Assembly (NCBI GenBank): GCA_035569605.1
Contig: DATMMS010000005.1
Coordinates: 355,262-419,261, forward strand
Source: Candidatus Solibacter sp.
GTDB lineage: Bacteria > Chloroflexota > Dormibacteria > DASZGP01
Direction: 5' to 3'
Length of the DNA: 64,000 nucleotides
Every line of letters begins with the position of its first letter. The first letter of the stretch is position 1. The notes beneath the pieces were generated by a model. The model had not been told where the DNA came from. It did not search any database and was given only the letters and a program-made list of their open reading frames with translations. The translations under genes and the position numbers were made by a program. Shown in pieces: positions 3,672 to 23,162 of this stretch.

Positions 3672-5480
3672 TTGAGCATCCAGCGGCTCGACCAGACGGT
3701 CGCAGATGCGATCGCCGCCGGCGAGGTGGTGGAGCGTCCAGCGTCAGTGGTCAAGGAGCTGGTCGAGAACAGCCTCGACGCCGGATCGAAGCGCGTAACC
3801 GTAGAGATCGACGGCGCCGGGGTGGACCGGATCCTTGTCGTCGACGACGGCGCGGGGATCGGCGCCGACGAGCTGGCGCTGGCGCTCACCCGGCACGCGA
3901 CGTCGAAGCTGTCCAGCATCGCGGAGCTGTCGAGGATCGAGTCGCTGGGGTTTCGAGGCGAGGCGCTGGCCAGCATCGCCGCGGTCTCCCGGATCGAGCT
4001 CCGAAGTACGGCGGCGGGAGCCACCGATGGTGCCGCGATCAGAGCAGAGTACGGAGTGACCGGGGAGCCGACGACCGCGCCGCCCGTTCCCGGCACCCGG
4101 GTCGAGGTCAGCGGCCTGTTCGAGAACACGCCGGCCCGGCGGGCGTTCCTGAAGCGGCCGGCGACAGAGGCAGCAGCGGTGGCGAAGGTGCTGCAGGGAC
4201 TCGCGCTCTGCCATCCACACGTCGCTTTCAGTCTTCGCGTCGAGGGACGTCGCAGCCTGGACACCGCGGGCGACGGTGACAGGGAGCGGGTGCTTCGCTC
4301 GGTGCTGAAGGGAACGCCTGACGTGCTCGAGGTGCGTGGCGCCCGCGACGGCGTCTCGGTAAGCGGGATGATTGGTGAGCCGTCGGGAATGCGGCGGAGC
4401 CGGGAGCACCTTTACCTCTCCGTCAACGGTCGCCCCGTGGTCAGCCGGAACCTGGCCTTCGCGGTGGAGCAGGCCTACCGAGGGCTGGCGGGGCCCGGGC
4501 TCTTCCCGGTGGGCGTGCTGGCGCTGACGATGCCTCCGGAGTCCGTGGACGTGAACGTCCATCCAACCAAGCGCGAGGTACTTTTCCGCGCCGCACGCAC
4601 GGTTTTCGCGACGATCCAGGAGAGCTGCTTGCTGGCCCTGAGTCGCAGCGCCGCCTATGCCGGCGGCGGCTTGCTCTCCAGAGGGCCCGAGCTACGGGAG
4701 GACTCTGGCGGGTACGGGTCCGCGGTCGAGGCTCCTGGCGTCGCGATATCTTCCGGCACGCGCTCCGCGCTCGAGATGGTCGCAGTGGCAGCCGAGGTCG
4801 TGGCGGAATCGGATGTCGCCGCGCACCCGGCGCCGGCGTCAGGGCACCACGAGCCGCTGCTCCTGGAGCTGGCGCCGGCGGATCCTGCTACCCGGATCTT
4901 GCGAGGGCCATTCCGCCTTGTGGGCCAGGTCCTCGACAGCTACATCGTCGCCGAGGGACCCAACGGCCTGGTGCTCGTCGACCAGCACGCGGCACACGAG
5001 CGGGTTCTATTCAACCGCCTGGTAGCGGCCCGGGGCTCTGAAGGAACCACCCGTCAACCGATGCTGGTGCCCGCTTTGCTGCACCTGTCGCCGGTCCAGG
5101 CCGCCTGCCTGGAGGACTGCCGCCTCGACCTCGCCGCTGCCGGGCTCGACATCGAGGAATTCGGTGGCGGCGCTGCCCGGCTGGTCGGTCATGACCCGGC
5201 CCTCCCGTCGCGACAGCTCGACCGGATCGCGCTCGATGTCATCGACAGTCTCTTGACTGAGGGTCCCGAGGTGGACCAGGCACGACGGCTTGAGCGGGCC
5301 ACGTACACCGTCGCCTGTCACTCGGCGATCAAGTTCGGCCAGCATCTCAGCCGCGAGGAGATGGAGGCCCTGCTCAGGGCCCTGGAGGTCGCCGACCCCG
5401 GGATCACGTGCCCGCACGGAAGGCCCACCCTCCTGGAGATCACTGACAGCCAGCTCCGCCGCGAGTTCCGCCGCAGCTAG
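3672..5480 (+). CDS. mutL: DNA mismatch repair protein MutL
   Basis: GHKL ATPase N-terminus IAAGEVVERPASVVKELVENSLDAGS; start placed at in-frame TTG 3672 (about 11 aa before IAAGEVV, as in characterised MutL); upstream in-frame ATG at 3624 would overlap mutS; start uncertain. Confidence 0.88.
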   Translation: MSIQRLDQTVADAIAAGEVVERPASVVKELVENSLDAGSKRVTVEIDGAGVDRILVVDDGAGIGADELALALTRHATSKLSSIAELSRIESLGFRGEALASIAAVSRIELRSTAAGATDGAAIRAEYGVTGEPTTAPPVPGTRVEVSGLFENTPARRAFLKRPATEAAAVAKVLQGLALCHPHVAFSLRVEGRRSLDTAGDGDRERVLRSVLKGTPDVLEVRGARDGVSVSGMIGEPSGMRRSREHLYLSVNGRPVVSRNLAFAVEQAYRGLAGPGLFPVGVLALTMPPESVDVNVHPTKREVLFRAARTVFATIQESCLLALSRSAAYAGGGLLSRGPELREDSGGYGSAVEAPGVAISSGTRSALEMVAVAAEVVAESDVAAHPAPASGHHEPLLLELAPADPATRILRGPFRLVGQVLDSYIVAEGPNGLVLVDQHAAHERVLFNRLVAARGSEGTTRQPMLVPALLHLSPVQAACLEDCRLDLAAAGLDIEEFGGGAARLVGHDPALPSRQLDRIALDVIDSLLTEGPEVDQARRLERATYTVACHSAIKFGQHLSREEMEALLRALEVADPGITCPHGRPTLLEITDSQLRREFRRS

Positions 5481-5487
5481 CCGGCCC

Positions 5488-6402
5488 ATGGCGTCCGTCC
5501 CGGTGGCCATCGTCGGACCAACCGCGGTCGGCAAGACCAGGGTTGCGGTGGACCTCTGCCGCAGGATCGGCGGCGAGATCGTCTCGATCGACTCGAGGCA
5601 GGTGTATCGGGGACTCGAGATCTGCAGCAACGCCCCCAGCGCCAAGGACCTGCGCGGGGTTCGGTGCCACCTCGTGGGCGTCATAGAACCGGGCCAGAAG
5701 GTCGACGCCGCTGGGTACGTGGCCATGGCGCGCCCGGTCGTCGAGTCGCTGGCGGTGGAGTCAAAGACCGCGGTGCTGACAGCGGGAACCGGGCTCTACC
5801 TCAAGGCCCTGTTGGGGGGTCTGGACCTCGGCGGCCACCCGGCGGACGGGGTTCTGCGACGAAGCCTCGAGACCCGAGCGCGAAGCGACCTGGGGGCGCT
5901 GGTCGACGAGCTGGCCGAGATGGAGCCTGATACGGCTTCCCGTATCGATCGGGCAAACCCGGTACGCGTCGTCCGCGCCTTGGAGCTCGCGACCATCCGG
6001 CGCGGACAGGCTCTACCGACGACATTGGTCGGGCGCCCGATCGTCGCCGTCAAGATCGGCCTGACCGCACCGCGGGCGCTCCTCTACGAATGGATCGACG
6101 CGCGAGTCGATCACATGCTTACCTCCGGGTGGCTGGCGGAGGTCCGGAGCCTGGCTGACAGTGGGACCACGCTCAGCCGCGCCGCGTTGAGCAGCATCGG
6201 GGTTCGCGAGCTGGTCGAGGTCGCGGCTGGGAGGATGGCGCCGGACGTGGCCCGTGCCGCCATCGCGCAGCGGACGCGGAACTATGCCAAGCGCCAGCTG
6301 ACGTGGTTTCGCGCCGATCCCGAGGTGCGCTGGCTCGATATGACGCGGTTCAGCGGGTCGGATATCGTTGAGGCCATAGTCGAATTGATCGAGAAGAGAT
6401 GA
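5488..6402 (+). CDS. miaA: tRNA dimethylallyltransferase MiaA
   Basis: P-loop N-terminus VAIVGPTAVGKTRVAVDLCRRIGGEIVSIDSRQVYRGLEI; ATG at 5488 is 8 bp after mutL stop; the longer ORF from 5290 is an in-frame extension inside mutL. Confidence 0.9.
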   Translation: MASVPVAIVGPTAVGKTRVAVDLCRRIGGEIVSIDSRQVYRGLEICSNAPSAKDLRGVRCHLVGVIEPGQKVDAAGYVAMARPVVESLAVESKTAVLTAGTGLYLKALLGGLDLGGHPADGVLRRSLETRARSDLGALVDELAEMEPDTASRIDRANPVRVVRALELATIRRGQALPTTLVGRPIVAVKIGLTAPRALLYEWIDARVDHMLTSGWLAEVRSLADSGTTLSRAALSSIGVRELVEVAAGRMAPDVARAAIAQRTRNYAKRQLTWFRADPEVRWLDMTRFSGSDIVEAIVELIEKR

Positions 6403-12370: not shown

Positions 12371-12414
12371 TTGACACGAACGGCTGTTCGTGCATAATAG
12401 CGAACATGAGTTCG
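12371..12414 (+). promoter_or_regulatory. Sigma70-like promoter with two Cheo-type LexA boxes
   Basis: TTGACA 12371-12376, 16-bp spacer, CATAAT 12393-12398; CGAACGGCTGTTCG 12377-12390 fills the spacer; CGAACATGAGTTCG 12401-12414 overlaps the ATG at 12406. Confidence 0.55.
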
Positions 12415-12738
12415 TATGCCGATGTTCACTCTGGCGTCCGCCGTTCGCGCTACTACGCGCCGCCGGTGCCTCGTCGCAAGGCAGCCCGCATCAAGATCGG
12501 CCGGATCCTGGTGGTCCTCGGCATACTCATGATCGTCTTCATGAAGGCAGCCTATGGGGGAGGGCGGACGGGGACGGAATCCATCACCGTGCAGCCCGGC
12601 GAAACGGTTTGGAGCATCGCCGCCATCCGCTACCCGGACGACGACACCCGCAGCAGGGTGGCGGAAATCGTCGAGCTCAACCATCTCGGCAGCGCGCCAA
12701 TCTACTCCGGCGAGCGGCTGAGCATCCCGGCTCAGTAG
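12406..12738 (+). CDS. Small single-pass membrane protein with C-terminal LysM domain (YneA/ChiZ-like architecture)
   Basis: 110 aa; basic N-terminus, TM helix RILVVLGILMIVFM, LysM block ITVQPGETVWSIAA...SGERLSIP. Confidence 0.8.
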   Translation: MSSYADVHSGVRRSRYYAPPVPRRKAARIKIGRILVVLGILMIVFMKAAYGGGRTGTESITVQPGETVWSIAAIRYPDDDTRSRVAEIVELNHLGSAPIYSGERLSIPAQ

Positions 12739-13059
12739 GCACCGTACCCGGCCGGCCCGAAGGGCCGCTCGCGTAGCGTGGACCGGTCTTTGCCGGGCCC
12801 ACGACCGGTACCGTGACCCTCAAATTTGGTGCAAGAAACGCTTTCTGAGAGCGTCGTGTACGACAGAGCTCTTTGTGTGTATGAGTACCTCAGATTTGTC
12901 TGAGGGGGGCCAGTAGTGTTACAACAGTGTTGCAACTGTCACAGGAAGTACTAGGAACAGGGCAAACGCTCGGTGGGATGGCGAGCTTGCGGGAGGATTG
13001 ACGGGGTGAATCGGCGTACTTGTGGGCGTGCAGGCGCACGCCTTGGAAGGGACAGCTAG

Positions 13060-14421
13060 ATGTTCGGCGAACGAATCGCGATTGTTTTCATCACCGCGTC
13101 GTTGCTCCTTGGCGGAGGCCTGGGATACGCGGTCGTGGCCGACTACAACGCGACCAAGAACCTGAAGAACACCGCCACCGCCGGTTCCACCGTAACCACC
13201 GATCTGGGCCCCTCGGCGGAGCCTTCGGCCGCCGCCAGCGCGGCGACTGGGGGAGCGACCGCGACCGTGAATGCCGCCAAGCCGGGGCAGGTGGCGCTCG
13301 CGACCAGCCAGGCGGCCTCCGGCGTCAGCCACGATCAGATCGTCGTCGGCGGCATCTTCGACATGACCGGCCCGGTGGACTCCTCGGTGGAGCGAGACAC
13401 CGTTCGTGCGTACTTCAACAAGGTCAACGCCGCTGGTGGCATCAACGGCAGAAAGCTCGTCCTTACCTACTGCGACTCCCAGTACGACAACGTCCAGACC
13501 CACCAGTGCTCCAACGAGATGGTCAGTGCGCATGTCCTCAGCGTGGTTGGATGGACGGCCCCCAAGGGGGAGAACGACGAGGTCAAGTTCCTTGCTCAGC
13601 AGGAGCAGATTCCGATCATCGGCGGCCTGGGAACGCCGGAAGAGTTCAACTACCCGCTTTCCTACCCGGTCTCAACTTCGTTCACGCGAGCCGGACCGGG
13701 ACTCGCGGACGAGCTCAGCATGAACGGGTTCAAGCACCCGTCGATCATCTACATCAACGACGTGCCCTGGATTCAGCCCGTGCTGCAGGCGATCCTCGAT
13801 TCCCTGCATGCCCGGGGCATCCATGAGGCCAGCGTGGAGCCGGCCGCATCGACGGACCAGGACTACACCGGTCACGTCAACAACCTGCAGCAGGGCGGCC
13901 CTGACTCCCTGATCGCGGCGCTCGACCCGTTCAGCTACGCCCGTCTGTTCTCCGCGATGAACCGCGTCGGCTGGCACCCGCCAGTGATCGGCGCCGGGCT
14001 GGACAAGGGCAACCAGCAGCACGCGTACAGCACCCAGCTGGAACACGCGCAGTCACTGGTGCCCTTCCTGTCTCCGTACGATCACCAGAACAACGCCACC
14101 GTGGTCGACTACCTGAACACCGTCCAGCGCTACTACCCGCAACAGGTGCCGGCGCTGGACATCTACACGCAGATAGCCTGGTCGGCGGCCCAGGTCTTTG
14201 TCGAGGCCGTCAAACGCGCGGGGGCCAACCTCACGCGGGCTTCGCTGGTCCAGGCGCTGAACTCGATCCAGAACTTCGACACCGGGTGGTCGAGACCTCT
14301 GTCCTACAGCGCCAACACCCCTCACGACCCCAACCGTTGCTACACGTACGTGAAGCACGACCCGACGACATACGACCAAGGCGGGACCTGGCACACGTAC
14401 ACCGACTGGAAATGCTTCTAG
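13060..14421 (+). CDS. ABC transporter substrate-binding protein, type I periplasmic binding fold (branched-chain amino acid LivK-like)
   Basis: 453 aa; N-terminal membrane anchor/signal, IVVGGIFDMTGPVDSS...VNAAGGINGRKLVLTYCDSQYD blocks typical of Leu/Ile/Val-binding protein family; first gene of operon. Confidence 0.85.
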   Translation: MFGERIAIVFITASLLLGGGLGYAVVADYNATKNLKNTATAGSTVTTDLGPSAEPSAAASAATGGATATVNAAKPGQVALATSQAASGVSHDQIVVGGIFDMTGPVDSSVERDTVRAYFNKVNAAGGINGRKLVLTYCDSQYDNVQTHQCSNEMVSAHVLSVVGWTAPKGENDEVKFLAQQEQIPIIGGLGTPEEFNYPLSYPVSTSFTRAGPGLADELSMNGFKHPSIIYINDVPWIQPVLQAILDSLHARGIHEASVEPAASTDQDYTGHVNNLQQGGPDSLIAALDPFSYARLFSAMNRVGWHPPVIGAGLDKGNQQHAYSTQLEHAQSLVPFLSPYDHQNNATVVDYLNTVQRYYPQQVPALDIYTQIAWSAAQVFVEAVKRAGANLTRASLVQALNSIQNFDTGWSRPLSYSANTPHDPNRCYTYVKHDPTTYDQGGTWHTYTDWKCF

Positions 14422-15377
14422 CCGGGTTCCTCGGTCACTTCGCGGCGATAACCGTCGCCGGGATCGTGCTGGGCGGAATCTTTGCGCTCACCGCCGTGGG
14501 CATCGTGCTGGTGTATCGCGTCACCGGCGTTCTCAACCTGGCCCAGGGCGCGATGGGGATGTTCTCGACCTTCATGGCCTGGGCGGTGCTCCATTACTGG
14601 CATCCCTTTGCCAAGACCTCGAACCTGGCTTTCAGCACCCCGAGCTCGATCGCGGTGGCCGTCGTCGTGGCGCTGCTTTTCTCGCTGCTGTTGGGCCTGG
14701 CGCTGGAAAACCTGGTCTTCCGCTGGATCCGCGGACGGCCGCCGGTGGTCAAGACGGTCGTGACGGTCGGCATCCTGCTGACCCTGCAATCGTCAGCGGC
14801 GCTGCTCTTCGGCAGCACCCAGTACCACGAGGCGATCCAGTTCTTCGACAGCTCACGCTGTCCTGACACCAACCTTCTCTGCTTCACCATCGTCCTTGGG
14901 CCGGTTCGCTTCGGCTACGACCAGCTGCTGGTTGTCGGAGCGACCCTGCTGCTCGCCACCGGGCTGGCGCTCTTCCTCCGCTACGCCCGAGTTGGGGTGG
15001 CGATGAGGGCGGTATCAGACGACGCCGTCGCCGCCAGCCTGTATGGCATCCCCGTGAACATGATCGGTTCGGTTTCGTGGATGCTCGGGAGCCTGGTGGC
15101 CGCGGTCGCCGGGATCCTGCTGATCTCCATCGGGGTCACCTTCGACACCGTCAGCCTCACGGTTCTGATCGTGGATGGGCTGGCGGCCGCCCTGATCGGA
15201 GGCCTGGTCTCACTGCCGCTTGCGGTCGTTGGCGGCTTTGCGCTTGGCCTTCTGGAGACCTATCCAAAGCTGTGGATCTCGCAGTCGACCGGCCTGCCCA
15301 AGGTCATCGCCATCCTGGTGATCCTGGCGGTTCTGATGCTTCGCAGTGAGCGCTCGCTGCTGAGGGCAAAGACGTGA
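14412..15377 (+). CDS. livH: Branched-chain amino acid ABC transporter permease (LivH-like)
   Basis: Polytopic membrane protein; ATG 14412 overlaps SBP stop; ORF-track start 14286 is an upstream extension. Confidence 0.85.
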   Translation: MLLAGFLGHFAAITVAGIVLGGIFALTAVGIVLVYRVTGVLNLAQGAMGMFSTFMAWAVLHYWHPFAKTSNLAFSTPSSIAVAVVVALLFSLLLGLALENLVFRWIRGRPPVVKTVVTVGILLTLQSSAALLFGSTQYHEAIQFFDSSRCPDTNLLCFTIVLGPVRFGYDQLLVVGATLLLATGLALFLRYARVGVAMRAVSDDAVAASLYGIPVNMIGSVSWMLGSLVAAVAGILLISIGVTFDTVSLTVLIVDGLAAALIGGLVSLPLAVVGGFALGLLETYPKLWISQSTGLPKVIAILVILAVLMLRSERSLLRAKT

Positions 15378-16420
15378 TCGTGGGACGGCGGGGCCGCATT
15401 GTAGCCGGGTTGCTGTCGCTGCTGGTCGCGGCGCTGGTGCCCCTGCTGCTCCCGGTCGGGATGCAGAACCTGGCCATCGGAGGCGCCCTGGCGGTGTCGG
15501 TCCTGTACGCCTTCGGCGTGCTCTCGGTGGTCGTCCTCACTGGCTATGTCGGCCAGGTCTCGTTCTGCCAGGCGACCTTCATGGGGATCTCGGCGCTGGC
15601 AACCGCCGCACTGGTGAACCACGGCCTCAACTACTTCGCCAGCGCCGCCGTCGGGGTCGCGCTCTCGTTCGCGCTCGGCATCATCGTCGGGATCCCGGCG
15701 CTCCGTCTCCGCGGCATCCTGCTCGCTGTGGTCACCGTCGGCGTGGCTCTCAGCTTCGACTATTTCTTCTTCCAGGACGCTTCCTTCGGCTGGTTCAACG
15801 GCGGCCTTTCGGGCTGGAAGGTGGAAGAGGCGACCTTCTTCGGGTTGAGCCTGAACAACCTCGACTTCGATCACCTGATCAAGGTCTACTGGCTGCTGTT
15901 GGCGCTGTTCGCGGTGATCGCGGTCGCGATCGTCAACCTCCATGACTCCGGCAGCGGCCGCCGGTTCCGCGCCATTCGGGACTCTGAGGTGGCGGCGGCC
16001 ACCATGGGCGTCGACCTCACTCGCTACAAGCTGCTCGCCTTCGGCATCTCGGCGGCGATCGCCGGGGTAGGGGGGGCGTTCTTCCCGCTGGTCGAAGGCG
16101 CTGTTACGCACGATCCCTTCTCCTTCTTCCACTCCTTGACCCTGGCGGCGGTGGCGGTCCTGGTCGGGATCAGGTTCATTCCAGCGGCGATCCTGGGTGG
16201 CGTGTTCCTGCAGCTGTTCCCTTACGCGATCGCCAAGCTGGAGCAGGGGTTGAACCACCAGGACATCGGACTGACCTGGTTCAACGCCGTGCTCGGCGCC
16301 CTGCTGGTGTTCCAGCTGATCGTCTATCCCGACGGGGTGTGGGGCTCGCAAGCAAAGCAGACTTCGCACGCCCTGTCGAAGTTGCCGGTTGCCAGGCGCC
16401 CGGTGAGGGCGGTCCAATGA
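15374..16420 (+). CDS. livM: Branched-chain amino acid ABC transporter permease (LivM-like)
   Basis: Polytopic membrane protein; GTGA overlap with livH stop. Confidence 0.85.
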
Positions 16421-18138
16421 GCCTGCTCTCGGTGAAAGACGTCAGCCTCTCCTTCGGTGGGGTGCGCGCGCTCGACTCGGTGTCGTTGGAGCTGAACCAG
16501 GGAGAGATCCTGGGCCTGATCGGCCCCAACGGTGCCGGCAAGACCACGCTCTTCAACTGCATCTCCGGTGTGCTGCGCCCGGATCACGGCCAGATTCGAT
16601 TCGAGGATCAGCCGATCCTGCGGCTCAAGCCCCACGAGCGTGCCCAGCGGGGGATAGCCCGGACCTTCCAGGACCTCCAGGTCTGGCACTCCATGACAGT
16701 CCTCGAGAACTGCCAGCTTCCCTTCGACGCGCTCTCCGGGCGGAGCACGATCGCCGACGCTCTGCGGCTGCCGTGGGCCAACCAGGTCGAGCGGGAATCG
16801 ATCGAGCGAGCCCGCGCGGTGCTCCACTCCCTCGATCTGCTCGAGCACAGCGAGCGCCTCGCCGGCGACCTGCCCGTCGGTCTCCAACGCCGAGTCGAGA
16901 TCGCGCGGGCCCTGGCGATGAAACCCAAGCTGATCCTGCTCGACGAGCCGGCTTCGGGCCTCGACGCGGACGAGACCAACGCGCTGGCCGCAGCGCTGAA
17001 CCGGATCCGCGACAAGTTCAACGTCTCGATGCTGCTGGTCGATCACGACATGAGCCTGGTGATGCGCGCCTGCGACTACCTCTACGTCTTGGACTTCGGG
17101 GAGCTGATCTCGACCGGCCGGCCGGAGCGCGTCCGCGAGGATCCCCGCGTCATCGAGGCCTACCTGGGAGCGGCCGCCGAAGCCACGACCGAGGCCGAGA
17201 CGGTGAAAGCCAGGCCGAAGAAGAAGCTCGAGGTGCTGCCGCCGGTGTCGCCTCAGCCATTGCTCGAGGTCAAGGACATGTCGGCGGGGTACGGCGGCAT
17301 CGAGGTGATCCGCGGCATCAGCCTGACCGTCGGGCGCGGCGAAATCGTGGCCTGCATCGGCGCCAACGGCGCGGGCAAGACCACCACGCTGCGGGCCATC
17401 TCCGGGATCCTTCGCACCAACCGCGGCAAGGTGACGTTTGACGGCAAAGACATCACCAGGAAGGCCCCCGAGGCGATCGTCCGGCTGGGCATGGTTCATA
17501 TCCCGCAGGGGAGGGGGTTGTTCCCTCAACTGACGGTTGCCGAGACCCTTCGGCTGGCCTCGTACAGCGGCGCCGCCAGCGTCGACCTGACGCCGGCCCT
17601 GGACGCATTCCCGATGCTGAAGACCCGGCTCAACCAGGCCGTCGGCACGCTCTCGGGTGGGCAGCAGCAGATGGTGGCTCTGGCGCGAGCGCTGCTGGTT
17701 CAGCCCAAGCTGCTGTTCCTCGACGAGATGTCCCAGGGGCTGGCGCCGGCCGTCGTGCAACAGCTGTTCGAGCGGATCGAGCTCTTCCGCAAGAGCGGCA
17801 CCTCGGTCTTCCTGGTCGAACAATTCGTGGACTCGGCGCTGGCGATAGCGGACCGCGCCTACGTCTTCGAACAGGGTTCGGTGGCCGTGGAAGGCCCGGC
17901 GTCCGTGATGCGTCGCGACCGTGATGTGATCGCAGGCGCTTACCTGGGGACGGCGGTCGCGATGGCCGAGGTGAGCAGCAACGGCAACGGACACCACGCC
18001 TCGGCGTTGCTGGCCGACCTGTCGATCAAGCTGCCGGCCGAGTTGAAGCGTGCGGTCCAGGAGCGGGCCGCGAGCGAAGGCAAAGATCCCGGAGAGATGA
18101 TTGCGGAGTTGCTAGCCGCAGGAGGGCGAGCGAAATGA
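16417..18138 (+). CDS. Fused tandem ABC ATPase (LivG-like + LivF-like domains) with about 50-aa C-terminal extension
   Basis: Two Walker A motifs ([12 protein letters not shown]; [14 protein letters not shown]), two signature/Walker B sets; ATG 16417 gives ATGA overlap with livM; tail after the usual ...AYLG end. Confidence 0.85.
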
Positions 18139-19544
18139 CCAGGCCTCGGTTGCGCACGTCGAAGACAGTCGCGTTCGGTATTTTTGTCGCGTTCACAGGC
18201 CTGCTGCTGCTGGCCGCCACTGTAATGGCCGAGGTGCCCGCAACCGTCGACTCCTACGGCGGCAACGCCTTTGCCTCGGGTGTCCACGTCATCGTCGGCA
18301 GCAACAACGACCCCAACTTCTCCAACGGCGCGATCGGAAACCGGTATCCGCTGGCCCAGGCGGGGCAGGACATCTCGCCGGCATCGTCAGCGACAGCGAG
18401 CGTCGACGACTACGGGCCGTTGGTGTCGACCGTCCTCGGCAATGACTGCAACGCGCCGCCGCCGAGCCCTCTGCCGGCACCGTCGCCGCAGCCCAGTCCG
18501 AACTACTGCCTGGAACAGATCCGCAGGGACGTCCCGTACGCCCGGGCCCAGTTCCCCAACCCGCCCGGTGTGGCGGATCAGACGGTCAACGGTCCGAGCG
18601 ACCCCAGCCTGCCCCCGCTGCCAAGCACGGGCACGGCAAGCGCTCACGCCCGGGAGCTCCGGGCCTTCGCCGATGGCGTCTACACGGGATCGCCGGACGG
18701 AGCCACGTTCACCAACGCCACGGCCCACAGCGAGACCGGCGTCGCCAGTGATGGAACCATCACCGTCCGGACCCATTCCCACATCGGCTCCGCGTGTTTC
18801 GGCAGCTGCGGAGTGTCCAACTGGCTCCAGGTCACCAACACCGACGTGCAGACCATCGTCACCGCCGTCAACGGCAAGCCCGTGCCGCAGGCCGTGGTGG
18901 CGCCAGGACAGGTGCAGTTCTGTTCCGCGCCGGGGAACTGCCAGTCGGTGCAACTCTCAAACAACGGCGTCACCGTCGGAGGAATCGCCCCCCCGACGCC
19001 GCCTCCACCGGTCCCCGGTATTCCCACGTCGGTGCCGGTCCCAGGTACGGGAGCCAGCGGCGAGACCCCATTCTTCAAGGTCCGCACCATCAACCCGATC
19101 AAGTCCGTCAACGGCTCCACCGGGTCCATCGATGCTCTGGGCCTCGACGTCGAGGTCATGCAGCCGGGCAACTCGGGCTCCGGTATTCCCGACTCCCAGG
19201 TCGAGTTCATCCTCGGTGAGGGCCACGCCGACGGCTTCTCGCTGGCCTCGCTCGGTCTTGAGTCCGGCGGCGTCACCGACCTAACCGGCGGTGGCGACAC
19301 CGGCTCGCTGCTGGGGAGCATCGTGGGGGATAACCCAGGCGGCAGCGCCGCCGGCGTCACGCTGCCCGCGATCAAGCACACCGTCATCCGCCCCGGCGGA
19401 TTGGCTCTGGCGGGAGCTCTGCGGCCTCCGTTCATACCCTGGTTCTACGCCTGGGAAGCCTCCGCCTTCGCGGCCGCCGCTTCGATGGTCTGGGCCCGAA
19501 GGAGCCGTCTGAGAGACATTGCCGAGGAGGCGCTGGGCCAATGA
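18135..19544 (+). CDS. Hypothetical secreted/membrane-anchored protein, Pro-rich, Cys-containing
   Basis: 469 aa; N-terminal signal/anchor (VAFGIFVAFTGLLLLAA), C-terminal hydrophobic segment; ATGA overlap with ATPase stop; no family recognised. Confidence 0.6.
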   Translation: MTRPRLRTSKTVAFGIFVAFTGLLLLAATVMAEVPATVDSYGGNAFASGVHVIVGSNNDPNFSNGAIGNRYPLAQAGQDISPASSATASVDDYGPLVSTVLGNDCNAPPPSPLPAPSPQPSPNYCLEQIRRDVPYARAQFPNPPGVADQTVNGPSDPSLPPLPSTGTASAHARELRAFADGVYTGSPDGATFTNATAHSETGVASDGTITVRTHSHIGSACFGSCGVSNWLQVTNTDVQTIVTAVNGKPVPQAVVAPGQVQFCSAPGNCQSVQLSNNGVTVGGIAPPTPPPPVPGIPTSVPVPGTGASGETPFFKVRTINPIKSVNGSTGSIDALGLDVEVMQPGNSGSGIPDSQVEFILGEGHADGFSLASLGLESGGVTDLTGGGDTGSLLGSIVGDNPGGSAAGVTLPAIKHTVIRPGGLALAGALRPPFIPWFYAWEASAFAAAASMVWARRSRLRDIAEEALGQ

Positions 19545-19804
19545 GCGTGATGGCGGCCCGAACCGGCAAGACCACCCTGCACTGCCCCAACGACGACTGG
19601 GATTTCGATCCCCGATACACGGAGGGGGTATGCCCGATCTGCGGCTGGGGTCCGGGAAAGCGGCCCACCGCGGCCTGGCTGGCGCGGGTTGAGGCCCTGC
19701 CCTGGGACTACATCACGCTGGCGATCTTTGCTGTCGTGCTGCTCGTCGTGGGTGTGCTCGTCGGCATGGCCGCCAACGTGAACATCCTTCCCCAGGGCGC
19801 CTGA
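19541..19804 (+). CDS. Small zinc-ribbon membrane protein (hypothetical)
   Basis: 87 aa; CPNDDW...CPICGW Cys pairs then TM helix ITLAIFAVVLLVVGVLVGM; ATGA overlap with upstream gene. Confidence 0.5.
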   Translation: MSVMAARTGKTTLHCPNDDWDFDPRYTEGVCPICGWGPGKRPTAAWLARVEALPWDYITLAIFAVVLLVVGVLVGMAANVNILPQGA

Positions 19805-19866
19805 GGCTGCACCAGCTGTGATCGCCGCCGGCAACCTGCCGGCGGCTCAGTCGGAGGATCTTGGGG

Positions 19867-20427
19867 CTATCGGCGGGCTGTTCGCCAGGCCGAGTACGCT
19901 GTCGCGACGCCGGCCAGGCTGATCGCCGCCAGCAGGGATTCCACCGGCACCCCCGTGGTGAAGGGTGCCATGCCGATCGTCCAGGGGGCGCGATTGTGAG
20001 CCAGGACGGCGATATTGCTGGCGGTCACGAAGCCGACCAGCGAGGCGCCGCCCGCGGCCAGGATCGCAAGCCGCCGGACCCGGCCGGCGCCGGCGAGCGC
20101 CAGCGCTGCAGCCCCGATCAGCGTCAGGCCGAGTCCCAGCTCGGTCAGCTCGACAAGCCGGGGCAATATCGTCGGGAACCGGGAGGCCAGGTTCGCCATC
20201 ACGGCACCGTAGGGTCCTGGAGCGTGGGAGACGAAGCCCACAAAGCCGTTCACAAACGCGGCGTTCTGCAGCTTGGTCAAGCCTGAGAAGAGCCACTCCC
20301 AAGCCTGTACGGCGCTCAGAGTGGCGATGCCTACGTAAGGTCCCGCGGTCGCGAGCCCGGTACGGGCGGCTGTATGGACCCTGGCCGGAGCCGAGGTCCT
20401 GGTAGGGGAGACTGATGTAGCAGCCAT
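19867..20427 (-). CDS. Hypothetical polytopic membrane protein (possibly DoxX-like)
   Basis: 186 aa, several hydrophobic helices; family assignment weak. Confidence 0.45.
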   Translation of the reverse strand: MAATSVSPTRTSAPARVHTAARTGLATAGPYVGIATLSAVQAWEWLFSGLTKLQNAAFVNGFVGFVSHAPGPYGAVMANLASRFPTILPRLVELTELGLGLTLIGAAALALAGAGRVRRLAILAAGGASLVGFVTASNIAVLAHNRAPWTIGMAPFTTGVPVESLLAAISLAGVATAYSAWRTARR

Positions 20428-22154: not shown

Positions 22155-23162
22155 ATGCGGCGTCGCGGTTTACACTGCCGTTCGGTGGTCTCTTCCTCTA
22201 CGCGTCTCCAAGACCAGGTGTCGGCGTTCCTCGAGCACTGCGAGATCGATCGCAACCTCTCGCCGCTGACTGTGCGCATGTACGCGCAGTACCTCGGCGC
22301 GTTCGGCGCATGGGCCGCCGCCGAAGGCGTCACCAGCGCCGAGCAGATCACCCCAGAGGTGGCCCGGCGCTACCGCGTCCACCTCAACCGATACGTGTCG
22401 CCGGTCACCCGTCGCAACCTCTCGCGCGGGACCCAGACCTCGTACCTGGTGGCGCTGAGGTCGCTGCTCCGCTTCCTGAGCCGCTCCGGAGAGGACACCA
22501 TGGCCGCCGATCGTGTCGAGCTTGGCAAGAGCGGCGGTCGCAGCCTCAAGTTTCTCGACTCACACCAGGTGGCGCGCCTGCTGGCGTCGGTCGACGCCAC
22601 CGACGAGCCTGGGATGCGCGATCGGGCCATCCTCGAGCTGCTGTTCTCGACGGGGCTGCGGGTCTCCGAGCTGGTCGGACTGGATCGCGAGCAGGTCAAC
22701 CTGGAGAGCCGCGAGTTCTCGGTCATGGGCAAAGGTCGCAAGGTCCGCGTCGTCTTCGTCAGCGACGAGGCGGCCGACGGGATCCGCTCCTACCTGTCGA
22801 TGCGAAAGGATCGGTTCAAGCCGCTCTTCATCCGCTACCGCGGCCACGCCGCCGAGCAGGAGACCCCCGGCGGGCGCGCCGCCATGGACGGCGAGGCCTG
22901 GCGTCTGAGCGCCCGGTCGGTGGAGCGCATGGTTGCCAAGTACGTGCGGCTGGCGGGGCTGGGCGTCAAGGCCACGCCGCACACGCTGCGCCACAGCTTC
23001 GCCACCGACCTGCTCTTCAACGGCGCCGACCTGCGTTCGGTCCAGGAGATGCTTGGGCACGCCAACCTCGCGACCACCCAGGTGTACACGCACGTCACCA
23101 ACCCGCAGCTGCGGGCCGTGCATCGCGACTTTCACAGCGGCAACCGCCGCCGTGGCGACTAG
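22155..23162 (+). CDS. Tyrosine site-specific recombinase, XerC/XerD type
   Basis: C-terminal catalytic block LRHSFATDLLFNGADLRSVQEMLGHANLATTQVYTHV; N-terminal SAM-like domain; true start may be in-frame GTG at 22185. Confidence 0.85.
   Translation: MRRRGLHCRSVVSSSTRLQDQVSAFLEHCEIDRNLSPLTVRMYAQYLGAFGAWAAAEGVTSAEQITPEVARRYRVHLNRYVSPVTRRNLSRGTQTSYLVALRSLLRFLSRSGEDTMAADRVELGKSGGRSLKFLDSHQVARLLASVDATDEPGMRDRAILELLFSTGLRVSELVGLDREQVNLESREFSVMGKGRKVRVVFVSDEAADGIRSYLSMRKDRFKPLFIRYRGHAAEQETPGGRAAMDGEAWRLSARSVERMVAKYVRLAGLGVKATPHTLRHSFATDLLFNGADLRSVQEMLGHANLATTQVYTHVTNPQLRAVHRDFHSGNRRRGD

Follow-up and report, generated by a model that had tools for sequence, protein, structure and literature searches.

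A Liv/Urt-like ABC importer operon with two uncharacterized, co-conserved genes for predicted membrane proteins in a soil Dormibacterota genome

Genes and features of the locus

A 64,000-nt stretch of contig DATMMS010000005.1 (assembly GCA_035569605.1), from a soil bacterium of Candidatus Dormibacterota, carries six consecutive plus-strand genes at 13060-19804. They encode a substrate-binding protein (SBP), two permeases, a fused ATPase of the ATP-binding cassette (ABC) type and two proteins of no annotated family, here called X and Z (Table 1). All coordinates are those of this stretch, hereafter the window; related loci fetched from metagenomes and metagenome-assembled genomes (MAGs) carry L-numbers. 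The conserved linkage of X and Z to the transporter genes suggests that both proteins serve the importer.

The open reading frame (ORF) list and the junction sequences give successive overlaps of 10, 4, 4, 4 and 4 nt, and all six ORFs and five junctions lie where a first-pass annotation, made from the sequence alone, had placed them. The start of the LivH-like gene is set by homologs having the identical 10-nt overlap. Strong Shine-Dalgarno sequences stand 8-10 nt before the starts of X (AGGAGGG, 18120-18126) and Z (GAGGAGG, 19524-19530), and the G+C content of third codon positions is 0.84-0.89 across all six frames. Overlapping junctions are usual in operons, and the overlaps taken alone do not go beyond chance; their conservation across loci does.

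A consensus scan finds neither a sigma-70-like promoter nor a terminator-like site at the ATPase/X and X/Z junctions or in their vicinity, and so none of the independent signals between the ATPase and the downstream genes against which the first-pass annotation had weighed its proposal. The sole plus-strand terminator-like match within the X and Z genes is weak and lies inside X (18900-18915), and the regional total of such matches equals the shuffle expectation. Between Z and a convergent gene ending at 19867 lies a GC-rich hairpin (fold -29.6 kcal/mol, z = -1.5), which the terminator scan did not flag because it lacks a T-run and which likely marks the end of the operon. The six genes probably form one operon.

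Table 1. Features of the importer operon and its surroundings, in window coordinates
Feature	Position	Strand	Remarks
SBP gene	13060-14421	+	453 aa
LivH-like permease gene	14412-15377	+	ATG 14412; 321 aa; start 10 nt inside SBP gene
LivM-like permease gene	15374-16420	+	GTG 15374; 348 aa; GTGA overlap with LivH-like gene
Fused LivG-LivF ATPase gene	16417-18138	+	ATG 16417; 573 aa; ATGA overlap with LivM-like gene
Protein X gene	18135-19544	+	ATG 18135; 469 aa; ATGA overlap with ATPase gene
Protein Z gene	19541-19804	+	ATG 19541; 87 aa; ATGA overlap with X gene
Ribbon-helix-helix-like C-terminal tail of ATPase	18001-18135 (codons ~529-573)	+	Pfam RHH_1 near cut-off
Conserved non-coding region upstream of SBP gene	12885-13059	+	96% and 89% identical to L022 and L023, without gaps
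10-bp GC hairpin	19824-19846	.	GCCGCCGGCA-ACC-TGCCGGCGGC
Membrane-anchored LysM protein gene	12406-12738		110 aa

The transporter core

The first four genes are a HAAT-type (Liv/Urt-like) binding-protein-dependent ABC importer, and family matches in Pfam and NCBIfam agree here with the Liv-type assignment of the first-pass annotation. The SBP is of the cluster-B type and contains a Peripla_BP_6 domain (PF13458, 148.9 bits, cut-off 31.7), and the LivH-like and LivM-like permeases match PF02653 (BPD_transp_2) at 97.5 and 96.6 bits. Pfam places two ABC_tran domains and BCA_ABC_TP_C on the ATPase. Its N-terminal half (aa 2-252) fits the NCBIfam LivG model (LivG/UrtD type; 388 bits, cut-off 362), and its C-terminal half (aa 282-511) fits the UrtE/LivF model (UrtE 348 bits, cut-off 286). 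The ATPase had been recognized as such at first pass; that it is a LivG-LivF fusion with a conserved ribbon-helix-helix (RHH)-like tail had gone unnoticed.

At the NCBIfam equivalog level, no SBP or permease model is reached: the scores and cut-offs are 29.8/477 bits for the SBP, 75/379 for LivH, 75/366 for LivM, 100/250 for UrtB and 61/296 for UrtC. The closest solved SBP relative is 4n0q, at E = 5e-8 only. "Liv-type" therefore names an architecture, not a substrate, and substrate inference from solved SBP relatives was dropped, the relatives being too distant. By domain content the importer core belongs to the HAAT family; it is not an ortholog of LivJHMGF or Urt.

Hydropathy places an N-terminal hydrophobic anchor at aa 8-26 of the SBP, followed by a low-complexity linker of ~65 aa before the Peripla_BP_6 domain. 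This arrangement suits a cell without an outer-membrane-bounded periplasm. The SBPs of related cassettes end in a conserved ...C...W.CF motif (the L016 counterpart lies at 5241-6338), represented in the window by Cys427 and Cys452. These two residues probably form a C-terminal disulfide, untypical of LivJ.

At the other end of the core, the last ~45 residues of the ATPase score 20.0 bits against Pfam RHH_1, just under the cut-off of 20.5; orthologs score 21.4 (L008), 18.3 and 13.7 bits. A hidden Markov model (HMM) of the tail detects it at the end of the LivF half in all loci covering that region except L017, where X and Z are present. The RHH-like tail is thus a signature of the cassette, accompanying X and Z in all cassettes but one. 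A homology search with the tail alone returned six short fragments only.

Proteins X and Z

Neither X nor Z has a match in Pfam, NCBIfam, PADLOC, PHROGs or PDB sequences, and the first-pass statement that the two proteins have no recognizable family held up in HMM and sequence-database searches. Pfam scans over 63 members of the X family gave no credible match (one chance match, E = 0.0086), 10 longer variants gave none, and scans of members of the Z alignment added none for that family. At 50% identity the X family falls into 130 clusters among 1.84 billion representatives, and all members found come from metagenomes or MAGs. At 90% identity the Z family falls into more than 620 clusters, each bearing the name "hypothetical".

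The topology of X can be read from conserved features at both ends. A signal peptide is predicted at aa 1-32 (nt 18135-18230) with an AxA-type site (VMA|EVP), and across the family a small-x-small cleavage site before (E/A/D)-V-P is conserved. A well-conserved N-terminal block is followed by variable Pro-rich loops closed by Cys pairs and by a Gly/Ser-rich linker (aa 372-430 in the window). The predicted C-terminal transmembrane (TM) helix (aa 433-455, nt 19431-19499) carries a W-(E/Q) motif, has RR after it and is among the best-conserved parts of the protein: W440 and R455 are present in at least 90% of the 63 sequences, and E441 is invariant in 12 close relatives, where Acidimicrobiia-type members have Q instead. 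Such conservation would be expected of a helix that packs against a partner. From these features, X is predicted to be an anchored type I membrane protein. The first-pass description of a Pro-rich, Cys-containing protein stands (10.4% Pro; 6 Cys as three close pairs), and its choice between "secreted" and "anchored" is resolved in favor of the latter by the signal peptide and C-terminal TM helix. A sorting signal of the LPXTG or PEP-CTERM type was rejected as a reading of the C-terminus, the combination of motif, TM helix and Arg cluster being confined to the X family. No sortase-like gene is near X in the listed neighborhoods of related loci.

The AlphaFold2 model of X built from a 63-sequence alignment has a mean predicted local distance difference test score (pLDDT) of 80.9, a predicted template modeling score of 0.70 and 240 residues at pLDDT ≥90; it supersedes a first model from a 12-sequence alignment (pLDDT 57). 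The model predicts an all-beta ectodomain of long antiparallel beta-hairpins, with the C-terminal helix following, and a fold search finds no solved fold relative. Conserved positions among the 63 sequences are mostly Gly and Pro, the only conserved polar residues being N69, D79, D92 and Y135. With so few conserved polar residues, X is therefore better seen as a binding or structural protein than as an enzyme.

The idea that X is an extracytoplasmic enzyme freeing the transported substrate from a polymer for adjacent ABC uptake is accordingly very unlikely, for all that X is predicted to be extracellular, tethered and encoded in a nutrient-uptake operon, with Asp and Asn in a conserved N-terminal motif. 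The 63 sequences conserve no catalytic-type Ser, His, Cys or Glu, and no hydrolase fold or family matches X. That X might be an outer-membrane-type beta-barrel or pore former is hardly credible, given weak fold scores, polar strands and a helical anchor where a closed amphipathic barrel with a significant fold match would be expected, and given the affiliation of the host lineage with Terrabacteria (PMC10608941).

Two knuckles of Z, C15-x2-D18 and C31-P-I-C34-G-W (nt 19583-19648), contain its three Cys, and the residues C15, D18, F22, T27, G29, C31, P32 and G35 are invariant in the alignment. The Asp of the first knuckle is always kept; the second knuckle is C-x2-C, but C-x2-D in Acidimicrobiia members. 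A single predicted TM helix (aa 58-76, ~nt 19712-19768), often with GxxxG/A, leads into a short outside tail that is Pro/Ser-rich in some lineages. Positive charges precede the helix, and the knuckle domain should therefore be cytoplasmic. The one TM helix noted at first pass is borne out, and the CxxC...CxxC ribbon is not, Z having three Cys rather than four and C-x2-D as its first knuckle. A four-Cys zinc ribbon was rejected on the same ground, two CxxC/H knuckles being absent and no zinc-ribbon Pfam model matching. Against the knuckle of methionyl-tRNA synthetase there is a weak profile match only (E = 0.028). An anti-sigma factor of the zf-HC2 type was likewise rejected, its defining motifs and partner genes lacking.

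X and Z are real, constrained genes. Ratios of nonsynonymous to synonymous substitution rates (dN/dS) against close relatives (dS 0.2-0.96) indicate purifying selection on both, at 0.07-0.20 for X and 0.05-0.10 for Z, compared with 0.006-0.05 for the permeases and ~0.10 for the SBP. X is the fastest-evolving member of the cassette, with 71% amino acid identity where LivH and LivM have 95% and the ATPase 89% (window against L024 and L023). In one locus (L007:3140-4520) the X homolog is split into ORFs of 304 and 152 aa, with tblastn matches to X that overlap across both frames; this points to a frameshift, whether in a pseudogene or from an error in assembly. The Z ORF that follows is likewise lengthened, to 192 aa.

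Conservation of the cassette

Co-occurrence of the two genes with liv-type operons in other genomes, which the first-pass annotation had named as a check, is kept in all of the ~20 distinct, related metagenomic cassettes recovered. X and then Z come directly after the ABC cassette in the same order without exception, for every X homolog on a contig that reaches far enough. X in these cassettes is 25-97% identical to the window protein, and the linkage is seen alike from searches started with X and with Z. The sources are Dormibacterota, Acidimicrobiia and unbinned soil contigs, with some MAGs labelled "Chloroflexi", and span at least two phyla.

Contigs with X homologs at 55%, 38% and 35% identity are all ordered binding protein, permease, permease, ATPase, X, Z. 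The same order holds for distant X members, namely a 430-aa protein and an 809-aa protein that weakly fits the family profile (E ~3e-11). When the six window proteins were compared by tblastn with every fetched locus, the order was the same wherever the contig reaches. A metagenome scan with a narrow alignment returned six loci, one of them the source contig. The junctions are conserved as well: of 11 gene-called loci, 9 have a 4-nt overlap between the ATPase and X genes and 9 an overlap between X and Z, and overlaps are kept down to ~25% identity.

What surrounds the cassette varies: the flanking genes fall into at least four unrelated sets (FumC-LysM, MacB-type ABC, LemA/DUF2207 and a two-component system). 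Subunit fusion varies as well. Dormibacterota cassettes encode LivG and LivF as a single protein and L015-L017 as two, and in L016 it is LivH and LivM that are joined. A PAS-HisKA histidine kinase gene lies 158 nt behind Z on the same strand in one lineage (L018:9539-11641; L019:3627-5729). HisKA_3/GerE two-component genes lie nearby in L003 and L016, and this linkage is inconsistent across loci.

Proposed roles of X and Z

The reading favored here, and one that is probably correct, treats X and Z as dedicated components, or accessory subunits, that belong to the importer. The conserved linkage, together with junctions free of promoter-like and terminator-like sites, supports the first-pass proposal that the two proteins function with the transporter, and that linkage is independent of both the flanking genes and the subunit fusions. 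The SBP and X are also alike in sitting on long flexible tethers. Less confidence attaches to any specific role for X or Z than to their being dedicated components.

In outline, X would be exported through its cleavable signal peptide and would present a rigid all-beta ectodomain on a flexible linker of ~60 residues, held by the C-terminal TM helix. Z would have the opposite orientation, with its Cys/Asp knuckle in the cytoplasm, one TM helix with GxxxG/A and almost nothing outside. We infer that both proteins assemble physically with the transporter, their single helices packing against the LivH/LivM permease core. On the outer face, beside the tethered SBP, X might act in substrate capture, retention or hand-over, or in SBP docking. 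On the inner face, next to the nucleotide-binding domains, of which the LivF half carries the RHH-like tail, Z might modulate ATPase activity or coupling.

Several points weigh against this arrangement. Gene linkage alone cannot tell a subunit from a protein that is functionally related but separate, and the 130 X and more than 620 Z clusters include no protein in which X or Z is joined to a transporter subunit. The fast evolution of X would be expected of an exposed protein and fits poorly with a tightly packed subunit ectodomain. L017 keeps Z without the RHH-like tail, so Z does not depend on the tail. No role of X can be tied to the chemistry of a substrate.

The conserved DNA upstream of the SBP gene bears on a different reading, in which the RHH-like tail binds DNA and shuts down the operon according to whether the transporter is idle or loaded. 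X on the outside and Z on the inside would be the sensing and relay parts of such a membrane-tethered switch rather than transport subunits. The 175 nt at 12885-13059 are much better conserved than the synonymous sites of neighboring genes (dS 0.25-0.65), and the 146 nt that precede them are 82% and 66% identical to L022 and L023, with indels. Within the 175 nt lies a tandem 11-nt repeat, AGTGTTACAAC|AGTGTTGCAAC, at 12915-12936, with a spacing typical of RHH operators. A riboswitch or leader RNA was rejected, there being no Rfam match and no stable fold (z = -0.6), and the region is thus likely a promoter or operator. AT-rich palindromes occur at the same place elsewhere and differ between loci (AAGTTATAGG-TAG-CCTATAACTT in L020; GGTTGTT...AACAACC in L003). 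Regulation by the tail would also agree with its scores at the RHH_1 threshold, its presence in nearly all cassettes and the lack, in most loci, of an adjacent separate regulator gene. Against it, each transporter would carry one RHH whereas the fold needs a dimer, X and Z occur in L017 without the tail, and no operator motif upstream of the SBP gene is common to distant loci, the best 10-mers being no better than shuffles. On balance, transporter-coupled regulation of this kind is improbable. The fuller proposal of a membrane-tethered "trigger transporter", a new kind of machine in which X as an outer sensor or receptor of novel fold and Z as a cytoplasmic knuckle protein couple substrate flux to DNA binding by the ATPase RHH domain, is equally doubtful; were it true, the pump would autoregulate its own operon without a separate transcription factor.

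X and Z could instead be a separate cell-envelope pair, in which a surface-exposed protein with a structural or adhesive function is accompanied by a small membrane protein; the pair would only ride on the transporter transcript and have no share in transport. The rapid evolution of X and the lack of any fusion with a transporter subunit, both noted above, would fit such a pair, and the Pro-rich and Gly/Ser-rich low-complexity linkers of X are typical of wall-spanning surface proteins. Passengers, however, should sometimes relocate or vanish, and ~20 cassettes from at least two phyla and with several sets of flanks provide no exception. The overlap between the ATPase stop and the X start is a conserved feature in its own right. 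An independent envelope pair thus seems unlikely, and dedicated components of the importer remain the preferred account of X and Z.

Neighboring genes

Ahead of the cassette, a near-consensus promoter at 12371-12398 (TTGACA, 16 nt, CATAAT) ends 7 nt before the ATG of the LysM gene, and a leaderless mRNA is therefore suggested. The LysM gene and the preceding fumarase gene are syntenic with the cassette in several Dormibacterota loci (L001, L002 and L008) and not in some others. L001 and L002 share the order HflX-LexA-ferredoxin-FumC-LysM-cassette-...-XerC, with which the window is syntenic for the checked part, FumC-LysM-cassette-XerC; the XerC/D-type recombinase of the window lies at 22155-23162. 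X and the checked surrounding genes, FumC through Z, have 100% protein identity to a JGI soil metagenome contig (Ga0210400_10000043, L027). The window also holds five tRNA genes (30.2 kb; 55.8-60.7 kb).

Comparison with known systems

Binding-protein-dependent ABC importers are textbook four- or five-component machines. To our knowledge, next to nothing has been published on additional single-pass subunits that a Liv/HAAT importer cannot do without, and the literature library searched yielded no description of such accessory proteins. The transporter described here is ordinary; what sets it apart is that two unannotated families and an RHH-like tail go with it strictly and across phyla. Both families, and the tail with them, are locked to one importer subfamily in Dormibacterota and some Actinomycetota, uncultured lineages that abound in soils, and one of the families has a confidently predicted fold without a solved relative.

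X, Z and the tail resemble known ideas by analogy only, no homology having been detected wherever it could be tested. As a small single-pass protein that would associate with a transporter, Z recalls the small modulators in AcrZ-AcrB, KdpF-KdpABC and MgtS/MgtR-MgtA, to which it has no sequence relation; it differs in its additional conserved cytoplasmic Cys/Asp knuckle of ~45 residues. The RHH-like tail may be compared with the C-terminal domains of MetN (C2), ModC and MalK, likewise extra domains after the nucleotide-binding domain that could regulate the pump. None of those domains has an RHH fold, and both copies of the ATPase carry them, whereas here the LivF half alone has a tail. By its RHH-type sequence pattern, the tail can also be likened to MetJ, NikR and PutA, RHH regulators tied to transport or membranes. 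If it binds DNA, the transporter would serve as its own transcription factor, which is rarely seen.

Mce and Mla ABC systems combine a core with single-pass proteins that have beta-rich outer domains (MlaD/Mce) and with small auxiliaries (Mam/Mas, MlaB), encoded in the same operon. The likeness is one of concept: there is no homology, X has no MCE domain in Pfam scans of its family members, and the permease family differs. A classical soluble-type binding protein also marks the present system as a binding-protein-dependent importer, unlike Mce/Mla.

Close counterparts are LivJ/K-HMGF and UrtABCDE (HAAT, TC 3.A.1.4), which share the Peripla_BP_6 protein, two BPD_transp_2 permeases, a LivG-type ATPase with the BCA_ABC_TP_C motif, a LivF/UrtE-type ATPase and the gene order. 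Here, by contrast, the two ATPases make up a single protein with an RHH-like tail at its end, a TM helix and a long linker tether the SBP, and two extra obligatory genes, X and Z, follow. If X and Z are true subunits, this cassette would represent a new architecture for a major transporter family and would give function-linked names to two families now called "hypothetical".

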